DNA of 18,861 bases from Nitrospirota bacterium (GCA_043816605.1 JBDRHR010000165.1:1-18861); one strand, 5' to 3'; positions 1-17,369 are shown, counted from the stretch's first letter. Notes: generated by a model from the sequence alone, not told the origin. Numbers and translations are program-made.

Positions 1-960
1 ACATTTTTTGCACAAAATATGAAGAAGTTGGAAGATCAAGGCGTGATACTTGATGTTACGAAATATCAGCAGGAAATTATCGCCAACGCCAAAATTGAAG
101 GCACAACATTTGACGAGATTGAGGGCAAAATTGATTCCGAATCGCGCGCTCGGCTAACAATTGCCGGAAATGATTTGCAGGCATTGTTTGAACAGATTAT
201 CAAAGATTACCTCGGCTCGTTCAAAAATATCAAAAGGTCAGTGCCAGTTGTAAAAACTGCGATTTATTCGTATTTTAGAAAATATCTTGGTTCAAAAGCA
301 TGGCCAGAAGAAGCAATCCTCGTGCAAATGGTATTTGTCCATAACGGCAATAGAAAAAAGTTTGAGGAAATTTTGGCGCAAGCGGTTGAAAAATACAAAG
401 CGGTTAGAGAAAAGGAAATCCAAAAGAGGGTTCAAGAAAGCGAGCAATGGTATGAGTTTGAAATTGCCAAAGAGAAATTTTTCAACCAGCACACGGACGA
501 AAGAGTGGATTATGAAAAATATGTATATGAGCCATGCTATTTGAGCGCGGAGCGACTTAATCCCGAAAAGAATTTTGAGAAGTTTTTGAAAGACAATGCA
601 GATAAAATTCTTTGGTGGTGGAAAAACGGCGAGAATAAACGAGATTATTTTGGTATTAAATATGAATATCCCGCAGGCTTTATTCATACTTTTTACCCTG
701 ATTATTTAGTAAGATTAGCCGATGGACGGCTAGGTATTTTTGAAGTGAAAGATATGGGCGACCAGCAAGGCGGATCATATACCAAAGCAAAGGCTGAAAA
801 ATTACAGGAATATGCAAAAGAGCAAAAAGATAAAAAACTTTTCGGTGGGATTGCGATTGAAAAAAACGACGGCTGGAAAATAAACCAAAAAGAAAAATAC
901 GACTGGAGCAAGTGCGAAAAGAAAGATTGGAGCGATTGGGAAAAATTAGATTTGGAATAA
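1..960 (+). CDS. 3' portion of a larger gene encoding a restriction-enzyme-like (type III Res-like) C-terminal PD-(D/E)xK nuclease domain. The true start lies upstream of the window.
   Basis: Frame 1 is open from nt 1 (TFFAQN precedes the first Met at 19) and there is no RBS before 19. The C-terminal region carries a nuclease-type motif: WWWKNGE...FYPDYLVRLADGRLGIFEVKDMGD (PD...EVK). The stop at 958-960 lies 4 nt before the next ATG. Confidence 0.45.
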   Translation, partial: TFFAQNMKKLEDQGVILDVTKYQQEIIANAKIEGTTFDEIEGKIDSESRARLTIAGNDLQALFEQIIKDYLGSFKNIKRSVPVVKTAIYSYFRKYLGSKAWPEEAILVQMVFVHNGNRKKFEEILAQAVEKYKAVREKEIQKRVQESEQWYEFEIAKEKFFNQHTDERVDYEKYVYEPCYLSAERLNPEKNFEKFLKDNADKILWWWKNGENKRDYFGIKYEYPAGFIHTFYPDYLVRLADGRLGIFEVKDMGDQQGGSYTKAKAEKLQEYAKEQKDKKLFGGIAIEKNDGWKINQKEKYDWSKCEKKDWSDWEKLDLE

Positions 961-964
961 TACT

Positions 965-1828
965 ATGGCAACAACTATTACAGCATCATTTCAAAAACTA
1001 AAAGAAAACCTTGAAATAACAGGGCTTCAAAAAAGCACAACTTCAACTCGTCAAAAAAATGTTCGCGATGTTGTGGCGAATGAAATGGATGTTTTAGATT
1101 CTTTTTTAACTGGCTCATATGCAAGATCAACAATGATTTCTCCTCTCGTGAAAGCAGATATTGATATTCTCATTGTTCTTGATCCAAAGTATTATGAGTC
1201 AGATGGACAGGCAAGTTTGCTGGATAAAGTAAAAAGGGTTTTGCTGAAAACTTATACAAAAACTCCAAAAATAAGTAGAAACAGACAAGCAGTTACTATT
1301 ACTTTTACAGATTTTATTGTTGATGTTGTTCCTGCTTTTAATAGGGAAGGTGGCGGTTATTTAATTCCAGGCACGGTTCAGAAAGTTTGGATAGCCACAA
1401 ATCCCAAAATCCATGTTGATGTAATGGCAAGCGAAAACAAAAATCATAATGGCGATTTAGTACCAATTGTAAAAATGGTTAAAGGCTGGAACAAAAATAT
1501 TAACGATGATTTTGTTTCATTTTATTTAGAATTATTAGCAATCAAGATTTTTAAAAATGTTACTATCAACGACTATCCCAGCGGAATGAGATTTTTCTTT
1601 GATAAAGGGCGGGAGGCAATAAAATATAAAGTTCAAGACCCAGTTGAATATGGCGGTCAAATAAATCCATTAAGAAATTGTCAAACTGTTGATAACGCAG
1701 TAGGTAGATTTGAAACTGCATACAATCGGGCTATTAAAGCTGAACAGTATGCTAAAAATGGAAATACTGAAAATGCTATTGATGAGTGGAGAAAAATATT
1801 TGGTGATTATTTTCCAGCATACGGATAA
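965..1828 (+). CDS. SMODS / CD-NTase-type nucleotidyltransferase (candidate cyclic-oligonucleotide synthase)
   Basis: The pol-beta NTase core is present: TGSYARSTMISPLVKADIDILIVLD (GS...DhD) and a downstream acidic strand FIVDVVPAF (third catalytic Asp). The protein is 287 aa with a helical C-terminal half. It is tightly coupled to the preceding gene (4 nt gap) and to a 2TM SLATT-like gene (11 nt gap). A KNTase/MNT-type nucleotidyltransferase cannot be excluded from sequence alone. Confidence 0.5.
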   Translation: MATTITASFQKLKENLEITGLQKSTTSTRQKNVRDVVANEMDVLDSFLTGSYARSTMISPLVKADIDILIVLDPKYYESDGQASLLDKVKRVLLKTYTKTPKISRNRQAVTITFTDFIVDVVPAFNREGGGYLIPGTVQKVWIATNPKIHVDVMASENKNHNGDLVPIVKMVKGWNKNINDDFVSFYLELLAIKIFKNVTINDYPSGMRFFFDKGREAIKYKVQDPVEYGGQINPLRNCQTVDNAVGRFETAYNRAIKAEQYAKNGNTENAIDEWRKIFGDYFPAYG

Positions 1829-1839
1829 ATTAAAATACT

Positions 1840-2337
1840 ATGAATAATAAAGAAAAAATTATAAACGAGGCCAAAAGAATTGAGGAAGACAGTATTTACT
1901 CTGCCAAAGGTCATTTTTATGCTGGTCAATGTTGGGTAAATATGAACCTTTGGCTCGGCGGTATTTCCGCTGTTCTTTCTGCAATCGCTGGGGCTTCAGC
2001 TCTATCTCAATTCGATTATCACAACATCGTCGCTGGCGGACTTTCAATCATCGTCGCTGGCTTAACTGCTGTGATTACTTTTGTAAATCCAAGTGAGCGA
2101 TCCGTCGTTCATCAAAAGATTGGAAACGAATATAATGCTTTGCGAAATGATACAAGAATATTTTATGATATTGAGGTTAATAATATAGACGAGAAACGGG
2201 CGATTGAAGATTTGAAAAAGTTAAACGATAAAAGAAACAAGTTAAATTTGGAATCCCACCAAATCCCCAAATGGGCTTTTGAAAAAGCCCGAAAAGGGAT
2301 TGAAGGAGGAGAAGCAAAATACAAAGTTGATAATTAA
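1840..2337 (+). CDS. SLATT-like two-transmembrane-helix protein (predicted membrane effector)
   Basis: The 165-aa protein has two adjacent hydrophobic helices (LWLGGISAVLSAIAGASALSQF and IVAGGLSIIVAGLTAVITFV) separated by a 6-aa loop. A charged, helical C-terminal tail of about 80 aa follows. It lies immediately downstream of the SMODS-type NTase. Confidence 0.5.
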   Translation: MNNKEKIINEAKRIEEDSIYSAKGHFYAGQCWVNMNLWLGGISAVLSAIAGASALSQFDYHNIVAGGLSIIVAGLTAVITFVNPSERSVVHQKIGNEYNALRNDTRIFYDIEVNNIDEKRAIEDLKKLNDKRNKLNLESHQIPKWAFEKARKGIEGGEAKYKVDN

Positions 2338-2376
2338 AAATCCGTCCGCCGAAAAGTTTTGGGGGCGAAGCCCAAG

Positions 2377-2426
2377 CAGGCGGGCAAAAAGGAAGGGGGT
2401 TGGGGGAAGAAATTTTTGCCCGCCTG
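2377..2426 (+). repeat. GC-rich hairpin: 14-bp perfect inverted repeat (caggcgggcaaaaa / tttttgcccgcctg) whose 22-nt loop contains two G5 runs
   Basis: Read directly from the sequence. It sits in the 111-nt gap between the SLATT-like gene and the ATPase gene. No T-tract follows it. Confidence 0.6.
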
Positions 2427-2448
2427 AAATGAGGAAAGTGTTCTTAAC

Positions 2449-4320
2449 TTGGTAAATGCCTTAAAATCCCTTTCAGGTACTTATGCCTTACAGTTATTTG
2501 AAGATGACCATGAACAAAACCAAAAGACTATAGCTATCGGCGTAACACTTCACTATTTGTTGCAAAGTAAGGAAAGAGAGGGAAACTTCTTATTGATTCC
2601 GGTATATTGTCATCCCGATATTTTTGATGATGCTGTTAATTTGTGCGACTTCTTACTTATTAGTGTTACACAGCAAAGCATTAAAATTACATGTATTGAC
2701 TCAGCCATTGAAGCAGAATTATCCTTTCGGTCTTCAATCCTTGAAAAGACTAACGAACGATTTTTGAAAACTGAAAAACTCTTCCATGATAAATATTTTT
2801 CAAGTCAGCAGGAAGAATCCGAAGGAAATATTGGGGCACCACTTGAGCGATCCCGATTAGTTATGTTGCTCAGATATTATCTTTCAAAAGCAGTGCGGTA
2901 TAACTTAATTGATAAAGAGGGGTTCGGTAAATTTAGTGAACTACTTAGCAAGGTGGAAGCCGGGAAAATCCAGCTGAATATATTGAAAAGAGCATATTTG
3001 ATAAGTCCAGGTGAAGATAAATATAAAATTGAACCGTCCTATCAGGATGAAATAAAAGTGACGATTCTTGGCAGGCATGTATTATCGGAACCTCCACAAC
3101 CGCTTGATTATGGAAAGCAAATCATTACAGGCTCTTATGAAGAATTACCGCTCATAACAGAAGAACAAAATAGAGAGGAAGAAGACAAAGAAATACTTGC
3201 TGAACAACCGTCTGATATTGGCGGTATCAAAACGGATGAGGTTGATGGTGCAGACATACCTTCATATCCAGAGTCTGTAGAAATCATATTAGGCAAGTCT
3301 GTAACTGATGAGAATGTTGTTTGGAAGCCCTCTGTAAAAGGAAGCCCTCATGTCTTTATTCTTGGAATACCCGGGCAAGGCAAGTCAGTTACCATTAATA
3401 CATTGCTTGTTGAGTTGCAGCGTAATGGAATTGGCACTTTGACCTTTGATTTTCACGGACAATTTAGCGATACAAGGAATGCCTTTAGAAAATCTTGTAT
3501 GCCCACAATTTGGAATGCAGCGGAAGGATTACCGTTTTCGCCGTTTGAAGCTGATTTAGTAAATGAAATAGGGCAACAGTCATGGAAAACGCAAAGTTTT
3601 GCATTAGCAGATATATTTGCGTATGTCTGCGAGCTTGGTGATATTCAAAAAGACGGTGTGTTCAGGGCAATTTCCGCTTGCTACAAAGATACCAAAAATC
3701 GTGGCGATAATACATTCCCGACAATCAACGACCTGGAAAAAAAGATTGAGCGATTAGAAAATAAGAAAGAAATAAGAAATGTGTTAGCCAAATGCAGACC
3801 GCTTTTAGAAATGAATATATTCAACCCACAGGTATTTGAGAAGAACTGGGATATCCTCGAAAGTACTAAAAAAGGCTTGGTCATTAATATAAAAGAAATT
3901 GGCTCAGAAACGGTTCAATTAGCTATCAGTGCCTTTGTTTTAAGAAAAGTATATAAAGAAATATTAAAATGGGAAGAGTCCTATGTCTTGAAATTGGCAA
4001 TTGTTTTAGACGAAGCTCATCGTTTAGCCAAGGATAAAACCTTGCCTTTAATAATGCAGGAAGCAAGGAAGTTTGGAGTTTTGGTTATTGTTGCAAGCCA
4101 AAATATCAATCATTTTCATGAAAATGTACTCGGCAATGCGGGAACTAAGATACTTTTTAGAACAAACAATCCAGATTCAAAAAAAGTTAGTAAGATGGTT
4201 CAAATGCGTAGTAGTAGCAATGCTCAAAGTATTATTGAGCAACTTAGAACAGGACAGGCAGTTGTCCAGACTCCTGACATAAGCTATGCAGCAAAAACAA
4301 TGATGAGAAAGTTTGATTGA
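2449..4320 (+). CDS. HerA/FtsK-superfamily P-loop ATPase (DUF87-like) with an unassigned N-terminal region of about 270 aa
   Basis: Walker A follows a HerA-like lead-in (ILGKSVTDENVVWKPSVKGSPHVFILGIPGQGKS). Walker B is LAIVLDEAHRL, followed by ARKFGVLVIVASQN and ILFRTNN, the pattern typical of HerA-like ASCE ATPases. The track start is TTG with aggaaag 11-17 nt upstream. The first in-frame ATG is about 138 codons in. Confidence 0.6.
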   Translation: MVNALKSLSGTYALQLFEDDHEQNQKTIAIGVTLHYLLQSKEREGNFLLIPVYCHPDIFDDAVNLCDFLLISVTQQSIKITCIDSAIEAELSFRSSILEKTNERFLKTEKLFHDKYFSSQQEESEGNIGAPLERSRLVMLLRYYLSKAVRYNLIDKEGFGKFSELLSKVEAGKIQLNILKRAYLISPGEDKYKIEPSYQDEIKVTILGRHVLSEPPQPLDYGKQIITGSYEELPLITEEQNREEEDKEILAEQPSDIGGIKTDEVDGADIPSYPESVEIILGKSVTDENVVWKPSVKGSPHVFILGIPGQGKSVTINTLLVELQRNGIGTLTFDFHGQFSDTRNAFRKSCMPTIWNAAEGLPFSPFEADLVNEIGQQSWKTQSFALADIFAYVCELGDIQKDGVFRAISACYKDTKNRGDNTFPTINDLEKKIERLENKKEIRNVLAKCRPLLEMNIFNPQVFEKNWDILESTKKGLVINIKEIGSETVQLAISAFVLRKVYKEILKWEESYVLKLAIVLDEAHRLAKDKTLPLIMQEARKFGVLVIVASQNINHFHENVLGNAGTKILFRTNNPDSKKVSKMVQMRSSSNAQSIIEQLRTGQAVVQTPDISYAAKTMMRKFD

Positions 4321-4764
4321 TTTTCTTTTGGTATAGGTCTGGTCGGGGTCAGACTACCATGTAGAAGTCAAGAACTTTTTTAATTTTCTTTTTTAACCTT
4401 ATTGGATACAACTTCCCCTTTCCCCAAGAATGTAGTAATGGAAAGGCGTTTGGAGGTAGAGGTAAATATTGTCCAATAATATCTTGACATAGTTGCCAAT
4501 AACTGATAAAATATCTGCGAGAGTTAAGAGTTTCTTTCCATTTAATGTTCCTCAAGGGATCTATTCTGGTAAATGCGGTTTTGCACCAAGCTACCAAATC
4601 GAGAGTTTGAGGAGGAAAGTGGAGAATCAGTGTCAGGGCTCGAATTGAGAAATTAAAAAGAAAGACGAAAAGAAAAGAGACGGCGGAGTGAAGTTTTTGA
4701 ATAAATCAGACAGAATTGGTTATTTTTGTGGTTAGTCGGATACTAATACATTTGGAAGGTTACA

Positions 4765-5223
4765 ATGAAAAAATCTCGAATTTATGCTGATACTTCTGTT
4801 TTTGGAGGATGTTTTGATGATGAATTTTCAAAAGAGAGCAAAGCACTTTTTGAAGATATAAAGAGTGGCAAATTTATACTTGTAATCTCTACGACTACTT
4901 TGCGTGAAATTGACAATGCACCAGATTGTGTCCAAAATATTCTATCGGAATTGTCACCAGAAATGGTAGAAATAATAGTTTATTCGGAAGAAATTGGAAA
5001 TCTTCGAGATGCTTATTTGAAAGCTAAAGTTGTCGGTCATGCAAGCAAATTTGATGCAGAACATATTGCTGTAGCTTCTGTAGCAGAAGTTGATTTTGTT
5101 GTTAGCTGGAATTTCAAGCACATTGTTCACTATGAAAAAATAAGTGGTTATCAAGCGGTGAATTTGCTAAATGGCTATAAACCCATTCATATTTATTCTC
5201 CAAAAGAGGTGGTTAAACAATGA
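4765..5223 (+). CDS. PIN-domain protein (VapC-like putative ribonuclease)
   Basis: PIN signature positions are present: RIYADTSVF (first Asp), LREID, DAEHIAVASVA (DAxhhAxA-like), then VVSWNFKH. The start has a GGAAGG RBS 6 nt upstream. Confidence 0.5.
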   Translation: MKKSRIYADTSVFGGCFDDEFSKESKALFEDIKSGKFILVISTTTLREIDNAPDCVQNILSELSPEMVEIIVYSEEIGNLRDAYLKAKVVGHASKFDAEHIAVASVAEVDFVVSWNFKHIVHYEKISGYQAVNLLNGYKPIHIYSPKEVVKQ

Positions 5224-5411
5224 AAAAACACAAAAAATTTGATTGTGTTCAGATGAAATGGGATATTCAACAAAAAATTGCAAAAGAGGCTGTTGGTATT
5301 TCTGACAAGGAATTCAACAGAATTCAAATGGGAAAAATTACTAAGAATCCCATTTTGGGACCATTTCTCAAGAAAACAGAATCAGAAAACAGAGTCAGTG
5401 GTAGATATTAA
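5220..5411 (+). CDS. Small HTH (XRE-like) protein overlapping the PIN gene stop (ATGA); possible antitoxin or regulator
   Basis: The 4-nt ATGA overlap indicates translational coupling. IAKEAVGISDKEFNRIQMGKI resembles an XRE-type helix-turn-helix. It is short and unverified. Confidence 0.35.
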   Translation: MKKHKKFDCVQMKWDIQQKIAKEAVGISDKEFNRIQMGKITKNPILGPFLKKTESENRVSGRY

Positions 5412-5578: not shown

Positions 5579-5857
5579 CGAATGGCACTGACTTAAGAGT
5601 TTACGAGCCAGAAATTCCACCCCCTTACCCCCGCCAGCGGGGGATAATTTACCCCACCCTGTCCCAGAACAACTGGTATCGGCCCTTACCCCCGCCAGCG
5701 GGGGATAATTTACCCCACCCTGTCCCAGAACAACTGGTATCGGCCCTTACCCCCGCCAGCGGGGGATAATTCCACAAGATATTGTAGTAATTACAAGGTG
5801 AAACTACTACTTATCAACCTGATTTTGTGTTCATATTTCTTAAGTCAGTGCCATTCG
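5579..5857. mobile_element. MITE-like nonautonomous element with perfect 20-bp terminal inverted repeats enclosing 2.5 tandem 61-bp units
   Basis: cgaatggcactgacttaaga (5579-5598) is the exact reverse complement of tcttaagtcagtgccattcg (5838-5857). The 61-bp units start at 5622, 5683 and 5744 (partial). Each unit carries the GC palindrome cccccgccagcggggg. No ORF is present. Confidence 0.5.
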
Positions 5858-5899
5858 GGACACAATACTAATTAATGGTCAATGCAAGGAGAAAAAGTT

Positions 5900-7654
5900 A
5901 TGGAAACACCAAATCATAAGTCATCAACAAGGCGCACCTCTGATTTTATACGAGATATTATTGAACAAGACTTAAAAACAAATAAAACTAATGGTCGGGT
6001 TGTAACCCGATTTCCGCCTGAACCAAATGGCTATTTACATATTGGACACGCCAAATCCATTTGCCTTAACTTTGGTATTGCCGAAGAAAATAAAGTAGGC
6101 TTGCCTGGTAGAGGTGTTTGCCACCTGCGGTTTGATGATACCAACCCCATCAAGGAAGAACAGGAATACATTGACGCCATTAAGAAAGACATCGCCTGGC
6201 TTGGCTTTGATTGGGGTGAACACGAATATTACGCATCTGACTATTTTGAAAAACTATACGAGTATGCGGTGGCGTTAATCGAAAATGGTAAGGCGTATGT
6301 TTGTGATTTGAACACGGAGGAAATCAGAGAATACCGCGGCACCTTGACTGAACCCGGTAAGGACAGTCCCTATCGTAACCGTTCTATTGAAGAGAACTTG
6401 GACTTGTTTGAGCGTATACGGGCAGGAGAATTTGAGGATGGTTCCCGTGTCCTTCGAGCAAAAATTGATATGTCCTCCCCAAATTTAAATATGCGCGACC
6501 CGGTTATGTATCGTATCCTCCGGGCAACCCATCACAGAACAGGTGACAAATGGTGTATTTATCCAATGTATGACTGGGCTCACGGCATCGAAGATTCCAT
6601 TGAAGGTATCACCCATTCGATTTGCACATTAGAATTTGAAGACCACCGACCACTGTATGATTATTTTCTGAACGAATTGAATGTCCACCATCCTAAGCAA
6701 ATTGAATTTGCTCGCCTTAATCTCACTTATACGGTAATGAGTAAGCGAAAACTTCTGGAATTGGTCAAACAAGGCTATGTAACCAGCTGGGATGACCCAC
6801 GCATGCCTACAATATCAGGCTTACGCAGGCGTGGTTACACAAAAGAGGCAATCCGAGATTTTTGTGAACGAATTGGAGTGGCAAAAAGTAATAGTGTGGT
6901 GGATATCGCCTTGCTTGAGCATTGTCTGCGTGAGGATTTAAATCTACGAGCACCGCGGGTGATGGCTGTATTGCGTCCACTTCGAGTGGTCATAGACAAT
7001 TATTCAGAGAATCAGGTGGAAGAGTTGGATGCTCAAAATAATCCTGAGGATGCCGGTATGGGATTGCGGAAAATTCCTTTTTCCCGTATCCTGTATATTG
7101 AGCAAGATGATTTCCAGGAGAACCCTTCGAAAAAGTTTTTCCGATTATCTCCAGGACAGGAGGTACGATTAAAACATGCGTATTATATCAAATGTGTGGA
7201 TATCGTTAAGGATGAAAAAACCGGTGAGGTGATTGAATTGCATTGCACCTATGACCCACAAACACGAGGTGGTTGGTCTGATGATGGACGCAAGGTTTTG
7301 GGGACTTTACATTGGGTTTCTGCGGCTCACTCACTAAAAACTGAGGTACGCTTGTATGATTATCTCTTCACAAAACCAAATCCAGAGGAGGACGATGATT
7401 TCAAGGCTAACTTGAATACCAATTCGTTAGTAAAATTAACTTCATGTTTAGTTGAGCCAAGTTTGAAATCCGAAATCCAAAATCTAAAATCCAAAATTCA
7501 AAATCCAAAAGGTGCTCTACCAGGAAATCGATACCAGTTTTTAAGGCATGGTTATTTCTGTGTTGACCCTGATTCTACTAAAGAATTATTAGTATTTAAT
7601 CGCACAGTATCTTTGCATGATTCGTGGAAAAAAATTGAGAAATCGCAAAAATAG
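5900..7654 (+). CDS. glnS: Glutamine--tRNA ligase (GlnRS)
   Basis: Class I HIGH motif ([17 protein letters not shown]) and KMSKS motif (TVMSKRK) are present. The protein is near-collinear with E. coli GlnRS as I recall it ([46 protein letters not shown]). The ORF track starts at 5882, but the ATG at 5900 follows AAGGAGA by 8 nt and gives METPNH..., matching the GlnRS N-terminus. Confidence 0.9.
7465..7510 (+). repeat. A-rich imperfect octamer repeat (aaatccaa-like, about 5 units) in-frame inside glnS
   Basis: gaaatccgaaatccaaaatctaaaatccaaaattcaaaatccaaaa encodes [15 protein letters not shown]. This appears to be an insertion relative to the E. coli GlnRS C-terminus. Confidence 0.6.
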
Positions 7655-7668
7655 GTAAATGGTCTGAA

Positions 7669-8949
7669 TCACAAAGCCCATTCTAACGATTCTACCCACA
7701 CATCATCACCTTTTGTAATTTCCTTTTGGTCGGGCAAAATTTGAATTAAGCAATTAGCTGAAATCATAGAATTAAGTATGCCGGAACCTTGTGCCCCGGT
7801 AGTGGTAACTATCCACCCATCTTCTCCATAAGAAAGTATGCCCCTGAGCCATTCTAATCGACCTTGTTTTTTAGTCATTTGGAAGTTAGTCTTCGCCTTA
7901 AACAGCACAGTTTTATCATACTCTTTACAACCAGCCATTTTCAAAAGGGCACATCGAACAAATTTAATAAAGCTAACTATCACAGAAACAGGATTACCCG
8001 GTAACCCAAAGAAATAACAACGACCGATTTTACCGAATGAAAGTGGTTTGCCGGGTTTTATATTCACCTGCCAGAATTCTACATTGCCAAGGGAATCTAC
8101 CACTTCTCTGACTAAATCGTACTTACCTACTGAAATACCACCAGAGGTAATGACAACATCTGCCCGCTCAGATGCCTCTCTAAATTTTGTCTTGAGCATT
8201 TCCCTATCATCTTTGACGATACCCAAATCAATTATTTCTACGCCAAGAGAGGTTAATAACCCGGTTAAACTATAACGATTACTATCGTAAATTTTTTCTG
8301 GTGTCCGTTTTTCTCCAATAGAAATAAGTTCATCTCCGGTAGAGATAATGGCAACATTTAATTGGCGATAAACATTTACCGTCCCATACCCCATAGAGGC
8401 TAACAGACCCATTTCCTGAGGTCTAATTCGTGTGCCTGTTTGAAGTATCAATTCACCTTTTTTAATACTTTCCCCTTGAAGTCGAACATTAGCACCTTTT
8501 TTAATCCACCCCCTTACCCCCGCCAGTGGGGGACAGCCATCTTGAAATCGAATATTAGCGTCAAATTTAGTCGCTTGGGGTGAAATACTTACCCAATCAC
8601 CATCTTGTAATGTTACCTCTTGCATAACCACTGTATCTGCCCCTTTAGGCATAGGTGCACCGGTCATAATTCTTAGGGCTTCTCCGGTTTTAAGTTCCTT
8701 ATCAAAGGATTTACCTGCAGGCAATTCCCCAATTACCTGCAATCTTACTTCCTCTATTTCACTAATATCTTCATATTGGACAGCATAGCCATCCATAGCT
8801 GAGTTATTACAAGGTGGGACATCAAAAGAGGCGATTACATCCGTGGATAAAATGCGATTCAAGGAGGATATTACCTTGATTTCCTCCGTTTCTTTAACCG
8901 GAACGATACCATCTAATATTTTTTGTTTTGCATCTTCAAAGGAAATCAA
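7669..8949 (-). CDS. moeA: Molybdopterin molybdenumtransferase MoeA / gephyrin-like
   Basis: SAMDGYAV, VITSGGISVGKYDLV and GLPGNPVS are MoeA signature segments. The start is TTG with AGGAAGG 5 nt upstream. The gene is convergent with glnS, 14 nt apart. Confidence 0.85.
   Translation of the reverse strand: MISFEDAKQKILDGIVPVKETEEIKVISSLNRILSTDVIASFDVPPCNNSAMDGYAVQYEDISEIEEVRLQVIGELPAGKSFDKELKTGEALRIMTGAPMPKGADTVVMQEVTLQDGDWVSISPQATKFDANIRFQDGCPPLAGVRGWIKKGANVRLQGESIKKGELILQTGTRIRPQEMGLLASMGYGTVNVYRQLNVAIISTGDELISIGEKRTPEKIYDSNRYSLTGLLTSLGVEIIDLGIVKDDREMLKTKFREASERADVVITSGGISVGKYDLVREVVDSLGNVEFWQVNIKPGKPLSFGKIGRCYFFGLPGNPVSVIVSFIKFVRCALLKMAGCKEYDKTVLFKAKTNFQMTKKQGRLEWLRGILSYGEDGWIVTTTGAQGSGILNSMISANCLIQILPDQKEITKGDDVWVESLEWAL
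8475..8562. repeat. Intragenic insertion within moeA: a 44-bp GC-rich palindromic element flanked by 22-bp imperfect direct repeats (18/22 identical)
   Basis: The inserted 8497-8540 contains tccacccccttacccccgccagtggggga, which matches the 61-bp unit of the 5579-5857 element. The flanking direct repeats are cttgaagtcgaacattagcacc (8475-8496) and cttgaaatcgaatattagcgtc (8541-8562). The total length of 66 bp keeps the moeA frame. Confidence 0.6.
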
Positions 8950-8961
8950 TTTACCTTCCTT

Positions 8962-9030
8962 TTACAGGTATCAGGTGTCAGGTATCAGGTAAGATTTCTG
9001 CCTTCTAAGCCCTAAACCCTGAACCCTTAC
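8962..9030. repeat. Intergenic palindromic element of the GTNTCAG-heptamer family
   Basis: caggtatcaggtgtcaggtatcaggtaag ... ccctgaacccttac. The right core ctgaacccttac is the reverse complement of the gtaagNNttcag core seen at 15363, 15826 and 17192. It overlaps the SPFH stop codon at 9027-9029. Confidence 0.45.
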
Positions 9031-15362: not shown

Positions 15363-15837
15363 GTAAGCGTTCAGGTGTCAGCTGTCAGCTATCAATTTTA
15401 ATAGAATTCCCCCTTATTAAACTTATCTTTACCCACAAATATTGCTGGACAATTTAAGGTAAACGATTAGAGAAATTATCATTAAATATTTTGTCCTGTG
15501 CAGTTGGAATTTGCTACACAGATTTATAATAATTTCACCCCTTCGGGGTTAGGATTTGTTTATACCGATTTTCTACAATCATATCACCCCTTCGGGGTTA
15601 GGATTTATTTATTTTGACTTTCTTAAATCCCGAAGGGATGACATTATTGTAGCACAATCATAAATAAACCATAATCAAATCCCGAAGGGATGACATTATT
15701 GTAAATGCAGAGGCAGAAAAATTGTCCAGCAAAAGATGTGGGACATGCTAAGATTATTAAAGGGGGTTAGGGGGTTGTTCCTCTCTCGATTTTTCTGGTT
15801 TTGGCTGAATGCTGATACCTGACGGCTGAACGCTTAC
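15363..15837. repeat. Composite palindromic noncoding element. Its 30-bp imperfect TIRs share the core gtaagcgttcag plus GTNTCAG heptamers. Internally it carries 2+2 copies of a 27-29-bp stem-loop repeat in opposite orientations.
   Basis: Left end gtaagcgttcaggtgtcagctgtcagct (15363-). Right end gctgatacctgacggctgaacgcttac (-15837), which is its reverse complement with heptamer substitutions. Internal repeats are tcaccccttcggggttaggattt (15536, 15586) and aaatcccgaagggatgacattattgta (15626-15652, 15677-15703). Confidence 0.5.
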
Positions 15838-17191: not shown

Positions 17192-17369
17192 GTAAGCATT
17201 CAGTAATCAGGTATCAGCAGTCAGCCAAAGACCAGTAAAATCAAGGATGGAGAATGAAAAATGGAGGATGGAGGAGAAAAGGATAAGATGTCATACATCC
17301 TTCATTCTCCATTCTTCATCCTTCATCCTATAAAAACTGATACCTGACACCTGATTACTGAAACCTTAC
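17192..17369. repeat. Palindrome of about 178 bp. Its TIRs are of the GTNTCAG-heptamer family, and its internal 33-bp imperfect arms are ggatggagaatgaa... / ...ttcattctccattc.
   Basis: gtaagcattcagtaatcaggtatcagcagtcagcc (17192-17226) versus the reverse complement of ctgatacctgacacctgattactgaaaccttac (17337-17369), which is gtaaggtttcagtaatcaggtgtcaggtatcag. The right TIR overlaps the stop codon of the Wzy-like gene (17355-17357). Confidence 0.5.

Follow-up and report, generated by a model that had tools for sequence, protein, structure and literature searches.

Four genes occupy the first 4320 nucleotides of an 18,861-nt contig, analysed here at its complete length and referred to as the window, from a metagenome-assembled genome (MAG) labelled Nitrospirota by its source. 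The question raised by this locus is whether the four genes act as one defence system. An earlier note on the sequence had proposed that a restriction-type nuclease, a SMODS nucleotidyltransferase, a SLATT membrane protein and a HerA-like ATPase might form one undescribed composite. With a probability of roughly 80%, bases 1-4320 are instead a stretch of defence island with three independent units: the 3' end of a Type III restriction gene (res), a complete Type I cyclic oligonucleotide-based antiphage signalling system (CBASS) and a 5'-truncated relic of a DndH/DptH-like gene. All three are of already known kinds and are merely juxtaposed. The region is an ordinary defence island and holds no new four-gene system.

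All four open reading frames (ORFs) are located on the plus strand. The frame of ORF1 (1-960) is already open at base 1, where the contig end truncates it. ORF2 (965-1828, 287 aa) follows after 4 nt and ORF3 (1840-2337, 165 aa) after another 11 nt, and these coordinates match the gaps first reported. The weak ribosome-binding sites of the genes were judged by eye. A GC-rich spacer of 111 nt (2338-2448) lies between ORF3 and ORF4 (2449-4320, 623 aa, TTG start). Profile searches bore out the initial calls of SMODS for ORF2, SLATT for ORF3 and HerA-like for ORF4.

Co-occurrence of the four genes

Scanning metagenomes with ORF2 yielded 47 cyclase loci (related loci are numbered with the prefix L). 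A homologue of ORF4 was found at none of the 47, of which 28 had at least 1 kb of sequence downstream, including L005 and L006, which share the upstream cassette with the window. In the opposite direction, no homologue of the cyclase or of the two-transmembrane (2TM) protein encoded by ORF3 was detected at 84 loci with ORF4 homologues (tblastn, E ≤ 1e-3). The contexts of the closest ORF4 relatives were Type I restriction-modification (R-M) genes, MAD7-domain proteins and DUF4276, with no CBASS. The comparison of gene neighbourhoods, which the earlier note had itself put forward as a check, thus spoke against its proposal: the four genes were never seen together elsewhere (0 of 28 and 0 of 84 for ORF4), and res stood beside the cyclase at three near-identical loci only.

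Because the ATPase and CBASS genes did not co-occur in either direction, the composite reading fails. The four genes do lie closely spaced on one strand, HerA-family ATPases partner effectors elsewhere, and the structures of Sir2-HerA and DUF4297-HerA were among the fold matches of ORF4. Besides the lack of co-occurrence, however, synteny breaks between ORF3 and ORF4 at 2426/2427, and ORF4 appears to be a truncated DndH-like gene whose conserved partners differ. The NCBIfam HerA_antiphage models scored ORF4 at 20.9 and 17.6 bits, compared to cut-offs of 800 and 850. Furthermore, the closest CBASS relatives, L005 and L006, continue downstream of the CBASS pair into unrelated sequence and not into an ORF4-like gene. 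One previously undescribed four-component system is therefore extremely improbable.

Junction at 2426/2427

Alignment by blastn of the window with L005, L006 and L007 showed 90-93% identity over 1-2426 and ended at position 2426. Alignment with L054 (87% nucleotide identity) began at 2427, which corresponds to position 411 of L054. The rearrangement junction (2426-2427, without strand) joins sequence of the R-M/CBASS type seen in L005-L007 on its left to sequence of a DndH-like gene on its right. In the junction sequence (...TTTTTGCCCGCCTG followed by AAATGAGGAAAG), the left half belongs to a GC-rich hairpin-forming repeat element, while the right half is L054-type coding sequence. The two sides share a microhomology of at most about 1 nt. 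Since the sequence changes at this point, and since ORF4 looks like a truncated member of the DndH-like genes, whose conserved partners are others, ORF4 is placed outside the CBASS and most likely has no role in it.

An assembly artefact could also produce such a junction, if two genomes or loci were joined at a repeat into a chimeric contig. The junction does fall at the end of the repeat, where the related contigs L006 and L007 break. Taxonomic labels also differ, as the relatives of ORF1 are mostly from Patescibacteria MAGs, the closest relative of ORF4 is from a MAG labelled Nanoarchaeota and the contig itself is labelled Nitrospirota. However, an overlap of at most about 1 nt leaves no sequence of k-mer length common to both source types at the junction, and the G+C content is uniform across it (34-38%). 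A chimeric contig is consequently regarded as very unlikely, and the junction is treated as a rearrangement.

A probable truncated DndH/DptH-like gene

ORF4 is assigned to a 5'-truncated DndH/DptH (MAD8)-like gene (2427-4320, plus strand), of which the C-terminal 40% or so would remain. The retained part begins with a degenerate restriction endonuclease (REase)-like domain, which a disordered linker connects to a HerA/FtsK ATPase. The closest relative, in L054, has 80% aa identity to ORF4, and its frame runs at least 136 codons further upstream, up to the contig end. This extra segment contains a strongly conserved block, WVLTIDRFFG...GDRLLVTTCWQ, which is collinear with residues 676-812 of a 1413-aa homologue from Thiomargarita. 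In the window the block is replaced by the repeat element, which carries a stop codon.

The DUF87/HerA match in Pfam begins at about residue 275. The N-terminal region of about 270 aa, called unassigned in the earlier note, can be aligned to the REase part of long DndH homologues and is completed by a linker. The motif PVD...RCDL...FIEVK of the long homologues reads PVY...CDFL...CIDSA in ORF4, and because these residues are replaced the REase-like domain is predicted to be inactive. An AlphaFold model of ORF4 with a pLDDT (predicted local distance difference test) of 83.8 showed a confidently folded region at residues 1-217, disorder at 218-269 and then the ATPase. The best fold match of the ATPase was the C-domain of DndH (7es4), which was also closest by sequence. 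Fold searches with the whole of ORF4, a query dominated by the ATPase, gave only ATPase matches, and the REase-like call for the N-terminal region is based on the alignment motifs together with the published arrangement of DndH, in which an REase domain stands directly before the C-terminal HerA/FtsK ATPase (PMC10853773). During truncation ORF4 would have lost some 800-1100 N-terminal residues as well as DndF- and DndG-like partner genes, and it is probably non-functional as a restriction system.

The intact form of the family was studied in a genome scan with an alignment of 26 sequences, which resulted in 80 loci. In 68 of the 80, the ORF4-like region made up the last 620 aa or so of a longer ORF, which had at least 1200 aa and typically 1600-1750 aa. 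In 60 loci the large ORF was preceded by a DndG/MAD7-like gene of about 565 aa, itself preceded by a gene of about 1300 aa. In L061, taken as representative, the product of about 1300 aa combines NERD, Ser/Thr kinase and SspF/DndF-like parts, the product of about 565 aa is mad7-like according to PADLOC, and the large protein matches DndH and mad8. This arrangement corresponds to that of the DndFGH system, in which DndF carries variable N-terminal NERD/kinase domains, and DndH, of about 1700 aa, has N-terminal SWI2/SNF2-like, beta-sandwich, target recognition and inactive methylase domains (PMC10853773).

ORF4 thus resembles DndH/DptH of DndFGH and MAD8 of MADS in its C-terminal HerA/FtsK ATPase, for which 7es4 is closest, in the alignment of its preceding segment with the REase domain of long homologues, and in that its long relatives are found in operons with NERD-kinase-DndF/SspF-like and MAD7/DndG-like genes. 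It differs from DndH/DptH in its length of 623 aa compared to about 1700, since the four kinds of N-terminal domain named above are missing, in its replaced REase catalytic residues, and in its neighbours, which are the CBASS pair upstream and no DndF or DndG. Sir2-HerA (Nezha) and the Hachiman-like DUF4297-HerA belong to the same ATPase superfamily and are represented among the fold matches of ORF4. In contrast to these systems, the window has neither a Sir2 nor a DUF4297 partner, the equivalog models for antiphage HerA remained far below cut-off, and the ATPase of ORF4 is nearer to DndH, VirB4 and TrwB than to those HerA proteins. ORF4 was also considered as a partner of the Type III-CBASS TRIP13-like kind or of the Sir2-HerA kind; both were rejected, as the ATPase family is the wrong one and the partner genes are missing.

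The operon of NERD-kinase-SspF/DndF-like (about 1300 aa), MAD7/DndG-like (about 565 aa) and DndH/MAD8-like (about 1700 aa) genes was found to be widespread (L057-L131, for example L061 1234-11923). Its hosts are mainly Chloroflexota/Ktedonobacteria, Actinomycetota, Planctomycetota and Armatimonadota. A UvrD-like helicase gene was located upstream of operons of this type in 17 loci. In L003 (1-3988) and L004 (2212-10205) the DndH-like protein is split into several consecutive ORFs, as is the MAD7-like protein in L004; these may be sequencing frameshifts, pseudogenes or truly split genes.

A Type I CBASS pair

Judged by their sequences, ORF2 and ORF3 constitute a canonical and complete Type I CBASS. 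They are assigned as such because of full-length matches to curated models, conserved catalytic residues and conservation of the pair. ORF2 (965-1828, plus strand) encodes the predicted CBASS cGAS/DncV-like nucleotidyltransferase (CD-NTase), an oligonucleotide cyclase of 287 aa in which G50-S51, D65xD67 and D120 are intact. A Pfam profile search gave SMODS at 5.9e-26, the PADLOC cyclase model PDLC00823 matched over the full length at 4.2e-100, and the NCBIfam equivalog CBASS_cyclase_b scored 215.9 bits against a cut-off of 200. Among 34 cyclase relatives with 44-95% identity, G50, S51, D65 and D67 were invariant and D120 was present in 33.

ORF3 (1840-2337, plus strand) encodes the putative CBASS effector, a SLATT_4 protein of 165 aa with two transmembrane helices. 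SLATT_4 was found both in Pfam (29.8 bits, cut-off 27) and in NCBIfam (142 bits, cut-off 55), and the PADLOC 2TM effector model PDLC00712 matched at 1.9e-61. Two hydrophobic peaks were observed, at about residues 46 and 73. A sequence search of ORF3 against the PDB gave no match. The earlier statement that SMODS plus SLATT is the minimal logic of CBASS was correct, and the curated cyclase and effector models were matched above their cut-offs.

Of 37 loci long enough to contain it, 31 carried a homologue of ORF3 within 120 nt after the cyclase gene, with the pair retained at 40-98% identity. The ratio of non-synonymous to synonymous substitution rates (dN/dS) of the cyclase and 2TM genes was 0.04-0.15, corresponding to strong purifying selection. 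A Type I CBASS is defined by one cyclase and one effector, hence by two genes (PMC10419184). Conserved Cap2/Cap3 or HORMA/TRIP13 genes were not found around the pair in the 47 loci; the window itself covers 965 nt upstream of the cyclase. In the window, L006 and L007 the pair is flanked by the genes for Mod, Res and a helicase and by the repeat element. The classification of CBASS is reportedly due to Burroughs 2015 and Millman 2020.

The pair therefore shares with Type I CBASS with a 2TM (SLATT) effector a GS/DxD/D CD-NTase with a small two-transmembrane SLATT_4 protein encoded next to it on its strand, the lack of Cap2/Cap3 or HORMA/TRIP13 genes, and retention across many genomes. No architectural difference was observed. 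The solved structures closest to ORF2 in a PDB sequence search were 6p82, 6p8u and 6p8j (about 1e-26), which we take to be Pseudomonas CdnD, from a Type III CBASS system, whereas HORMA/TRIP13 genes are lacking here. As in other members of the family, the CD-NTase would synthesise a cyclic oligonucleotide upon infection. The cyclic oligonucleotide would then activate the SLATT_4 protein, which would oligomerise and breach the inner membrane, and the cell would die before the phage matures (abortive infection).

A tandem pair of SMODS cyclase genes upstream of a single 2TM effector was observed in L022 (3820-5791) and L038 (9122-10864). The tandem cyclases of L038 are preceded by a SIR2_2-domain protein of 1289 aa.

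The 3' part of a Type III restriction gene

ORF1 (1-960, plus strand) is assigned to the C-terminal part of the Res subunit of a Type III restriction enzyme, on account of the names of its homologues and of the full-length gene in L007. The 319 codons correspond to about residues 467-785 of the 785-aa L007 homologue, to which ORF1 has 89% aa identity and which carries an N-terminal ResIII/SF2 helicase. A PD...EVK endonuclease motif (PDYLVRLADGRLGIFEVKD) could be read directly from the translation, and many of the 60 homologues carry the source name 'type III restriction enzyme'. Searches of the ORF1 fragment against Pfam, NCBIfam, PADLOC and PDB sequences gave no matches. The earlier call of a PD-(D/E)xK nuclease is therefore upheld by the visible motif and the homologue names, with no hidden Markov model match.

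The start of res in L007 overlaps the end of an upstream N6_N4 methyltransferase gene (mod), and an additional SF2 helicase gene of 608 aa is located upstream of mod. A ResIII helicase domain with a preceding N6_N4 methyltransferase was seen in both L006 and L007, whose Res proteins are 83-89% identical to ORF1. Only the C-terminal 41% of Res is present on the contig, and the helicase and Mod part would precede base 1. Exact-sequence searches with ORF2 and ORF4 yielded no longer source contig that might supply the 5' part of res. ORF1 resembles Type III R-M systems of Mod and Res (EcoP15I-like) in the C-terminal PD-(D/E)xK region, and its full-length homologue does so in the SF2 ResIII helicase and the overlapping upstream N6_N4 methyltransferase gene. 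The differences are that just 319 aa of Res are present, that L007 has the extra 608-aa helicase gene upstream of mod, and that the CBASS pair is appended 4 nt after res. In the complete enzyme, the PD-(D/E)xK domain would cleave unmodified foreign DNA following helicase-driven communication between sites.

Hairpin repeat element

The repeat element (2336-2426, without strand) forms the 3' end of the block shared with the relatives. Folding of the spacer resulted in a 14-bp GC/AT stem and a smaller hairpin at -42.7 kcal/mol (z = -2.05), and 7 of 200 shuffled sequences folded equally well. The spacer is thus structured, as the earlier note had described it, and is just moderately above chance.

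Copies of the element were located in L007 at 63-154 (inverted) and 7888-7978, and in L006 at 1-59 and 5856-5914. In L007, 1-154 and 7887-8040 are inverted copies of 154 nt with 97% complementarity. In the relatives the inverted copies flank a block consisting of helicase/Mod-Res-cyclase-2TM, and both contigs, L006 and L007, end inside the element. The Mod-Res-cyclase-2TM block may be a mobile or recombining cassette. A megablast comparison of 1-4320 with plasmids gave no evidence of a plasmid-borne cassette, and a scan of viral contigs for the repeat element by exact pattern gave no match and no sign of a phage-borne cassette. In an Rfam scan of the whole window the spacer matched no family. 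The spacer was not flagged in a terminator scan, its loop being longer than the limit of that scan. An integron attC site and a CRISPR repeat were considered and rejected, as neither an array nor an integrase was present and the only copies were the inverted ones around a cassette of 6-8 kb.

Restriction-modification neighbours of the CBASS pair

The cyclase ATG lies 4 nt beyond the res stop codon, and the pair is therefore probably co-transcribed with res. This 4-nt gap is conserved in four loci. Adjacency of res to the cyclase was limited to L005-L007, whose cyclases are 95% identical to ORF2, and loci with cyclases of 67-87% identity had Type I, II, IIG or IV restriction genes where res would be. 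Because of this replacement by other restriction types, the Type III nuclease is judged not to be a conserved component of the CBASS. The pair is nevertheless very likely co-transcribed with the R-M operon in which it resides. Divergence at synonymous sites (dS) between the window (1-2337) and L007 (5552-7885) was 0.56 for res but lower in the CBASS pair (cyclase 0.14, 2TM gene 0.08). These values imply a younger shared history of the CBASS pair than of res, and suggest that the pair was exchanged more recently than the adjacent restriction gene.

Restriction contexts were counted in the subclade of cyclases with at least 67% aa identity (L005-L021, L029 and L042), where the upstream stop codon is often only 1-4 nt from the cyclase start. 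A Type II methylase and REase in L008 and L009, and a Type II methylase in L011, lie 2 nt from the cyclase. The gap is 1 nt for the HNH-like REase of L010, for the D12 methylase and unknown 368-aa protein of L012 and L013, and for the HsdM-HsdS genes upstream in L019. Larger gaps were found in L021, also with HsdM-HsdS upstream, in L014 and L029, with HsdR and/or GmrSD, and in L015 and L016, where the pair is embedded between hsdS and hsdR. In L020 a Type IIG enzyme is encoded downstream on the opposite strand. Overall, and as a raw count, about 12 of 13 independent contexts had the pair next to or within an R-M operon, with Types I, II, IIG, III and IV all represented. More distant cyclase relatives had neighbours other than R-M genes, namely an integrase, RloB/AAA_21, a second cyclase and a four-transmembrane effector.

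Such contexts could be due to a functional connection. Type III R-M and CBASS might form a co-transcribed two-layer module in which the abortive CBASS steps in, as a back-up or guard, once restriction has failed or been inhibited. The Type I operon of EcoprrI, which contains the anticodon nuclease PrrC, would be a parallel case. The 4-nt gap in four loci, the inverted repeats that delimit Mod-Res-cyclase-2TM as a single unit in L006 and L007, and the frequent position of the pair at or inside R-M operons, often with gaps of 1-4 nt, all argue for coupling. However, the type of the R-M partner varies, so that no specific protein-protein coupling is implied, the distant relatives have other neighbours, and the adjacency figure is a raw count. 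It also counts against coupling that no defence genes are commoner than those of R-M systems and that other defence genes are known to insert at Type I operons. A functionally coupled module is considered unlikely. A wider form of the same idea, quite unlikely in our judgement, is that the cyclase-2TM pair of this clade would be a portable add-on to R-M operons of any type, co-transcribed with them and acting as an abortive back-up that fires on evaded or inhibited restriction; it would be the CBASS counterpart of PrrC/EcoprrI, and the res-cyclase junction of the window would be one instance.

Observations against three independent units

Returning to the three independent units, several observations weigh against this reading. 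The co-occurrence comparisons by tblastn would miss very distant CD-NTases. The 4-nt gap between res and cyclase and the inverted repeats enclosing Mod-Res-cyclase-2TM in L006 and L007 indicate that R-M and CBASS travel together in this lineage and are probably transcribed together; 'independent' therefore applies to their mechanism, not to their inheritance. As regards ORF4, the frame of 623 codons is intact, Walker A (GIPGQGKS) and Walker B (VLDEAHR) are preserved, and dN/dS with L054 is 0.33 and thus not neutral. A similar short form of 647 aa is found in L001 and L002. ORF4 could still be expressed and active in some way, and it may be either a recent truncation or a gene that retains some stand-alone activity.

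Taken further, ORF4 might be a functional stand-alone DndH-like HerA/FtsK ATPase, a natural short isoform acting alone or with unlinked partners. The intact frame and Walker motifs, the confident AlphaFold model, a dN/dS below 1 and the existence of further short forms (P0002, 647 aa, and P0003, 789 aa) are consistent with this explanation. It remains doubtful, however. The homology to L054 reaches the junction itself, where the L054 frame goes on upstream. ORF4 has only a TTG start and then lacks an ATG over about 148 codons. Its REase-like domain has lost the catalytic residues, and there are no DndF- or DndG-like genes. Moreover, the short form in L001 adjoins a methyltransferase fragment, which suggests decay, and the dN/dS of ORF4 is 2-8 times that of the neighbouring defence genes. 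A truncated relic is the preferred explanation of ORF4.

As it stands, the finding carries little weight: to the content of a metagenomic defence island it adds one Type I CBASS with a 2TM effector, one Type III R-M system and one decayed DndH-like gene. As an example it calls for caution, since closely spaced genes with a plausible set of domains hinted at a composite, and the breakpoint together with neighbourhood tests in both directions pointed to a juxtaposition in which one partner is a gene fragment. The sole lead for specialists is the recurrence of this CBASS clade in R-M operons of differing types. Functional coupling of R-M and CBASS, if true, would bear on the coordination of first-line immunity by restriction and second-line immunity by abortive infection.

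Further features of the window

Downstream of ORF4 a PIN-domain gene is followed by housekeeping genes. The PIN-domain gene encodes 152 aa and matches PIN_3 at 2e-4, which falls short of the Pfam cut-off. It shares 4 nt with the next ORF, of 63 aa and without a family match (4765-5411 for both), and the two are a possible toxin-antitoxin pair with the gene order reversed. At 4484-4512 a sigma-70-like promoter close to the consensus was observed.

A 61-nt unit in about 2.4 tandem copies, each with a CCCCCGCCAGCGGGGG hairpin, is located at 5616-5766. A perfect 20-nt inverted repeat, with arms at 5579-5598 and 5838-5857, encloses this array a short distance upstream of glnS, and an extra copy of the 29-nt core lies at 8505-8533 inside a minus-strand moeA-like ORF. 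Short intergenic repeats with CTGATACCTGAC-like motifs were found at 8962-8988, 15363-15394, 15800-15837, 17192-17229 and 17337-17369, in direct and inverted orientation between minus-strand genes.

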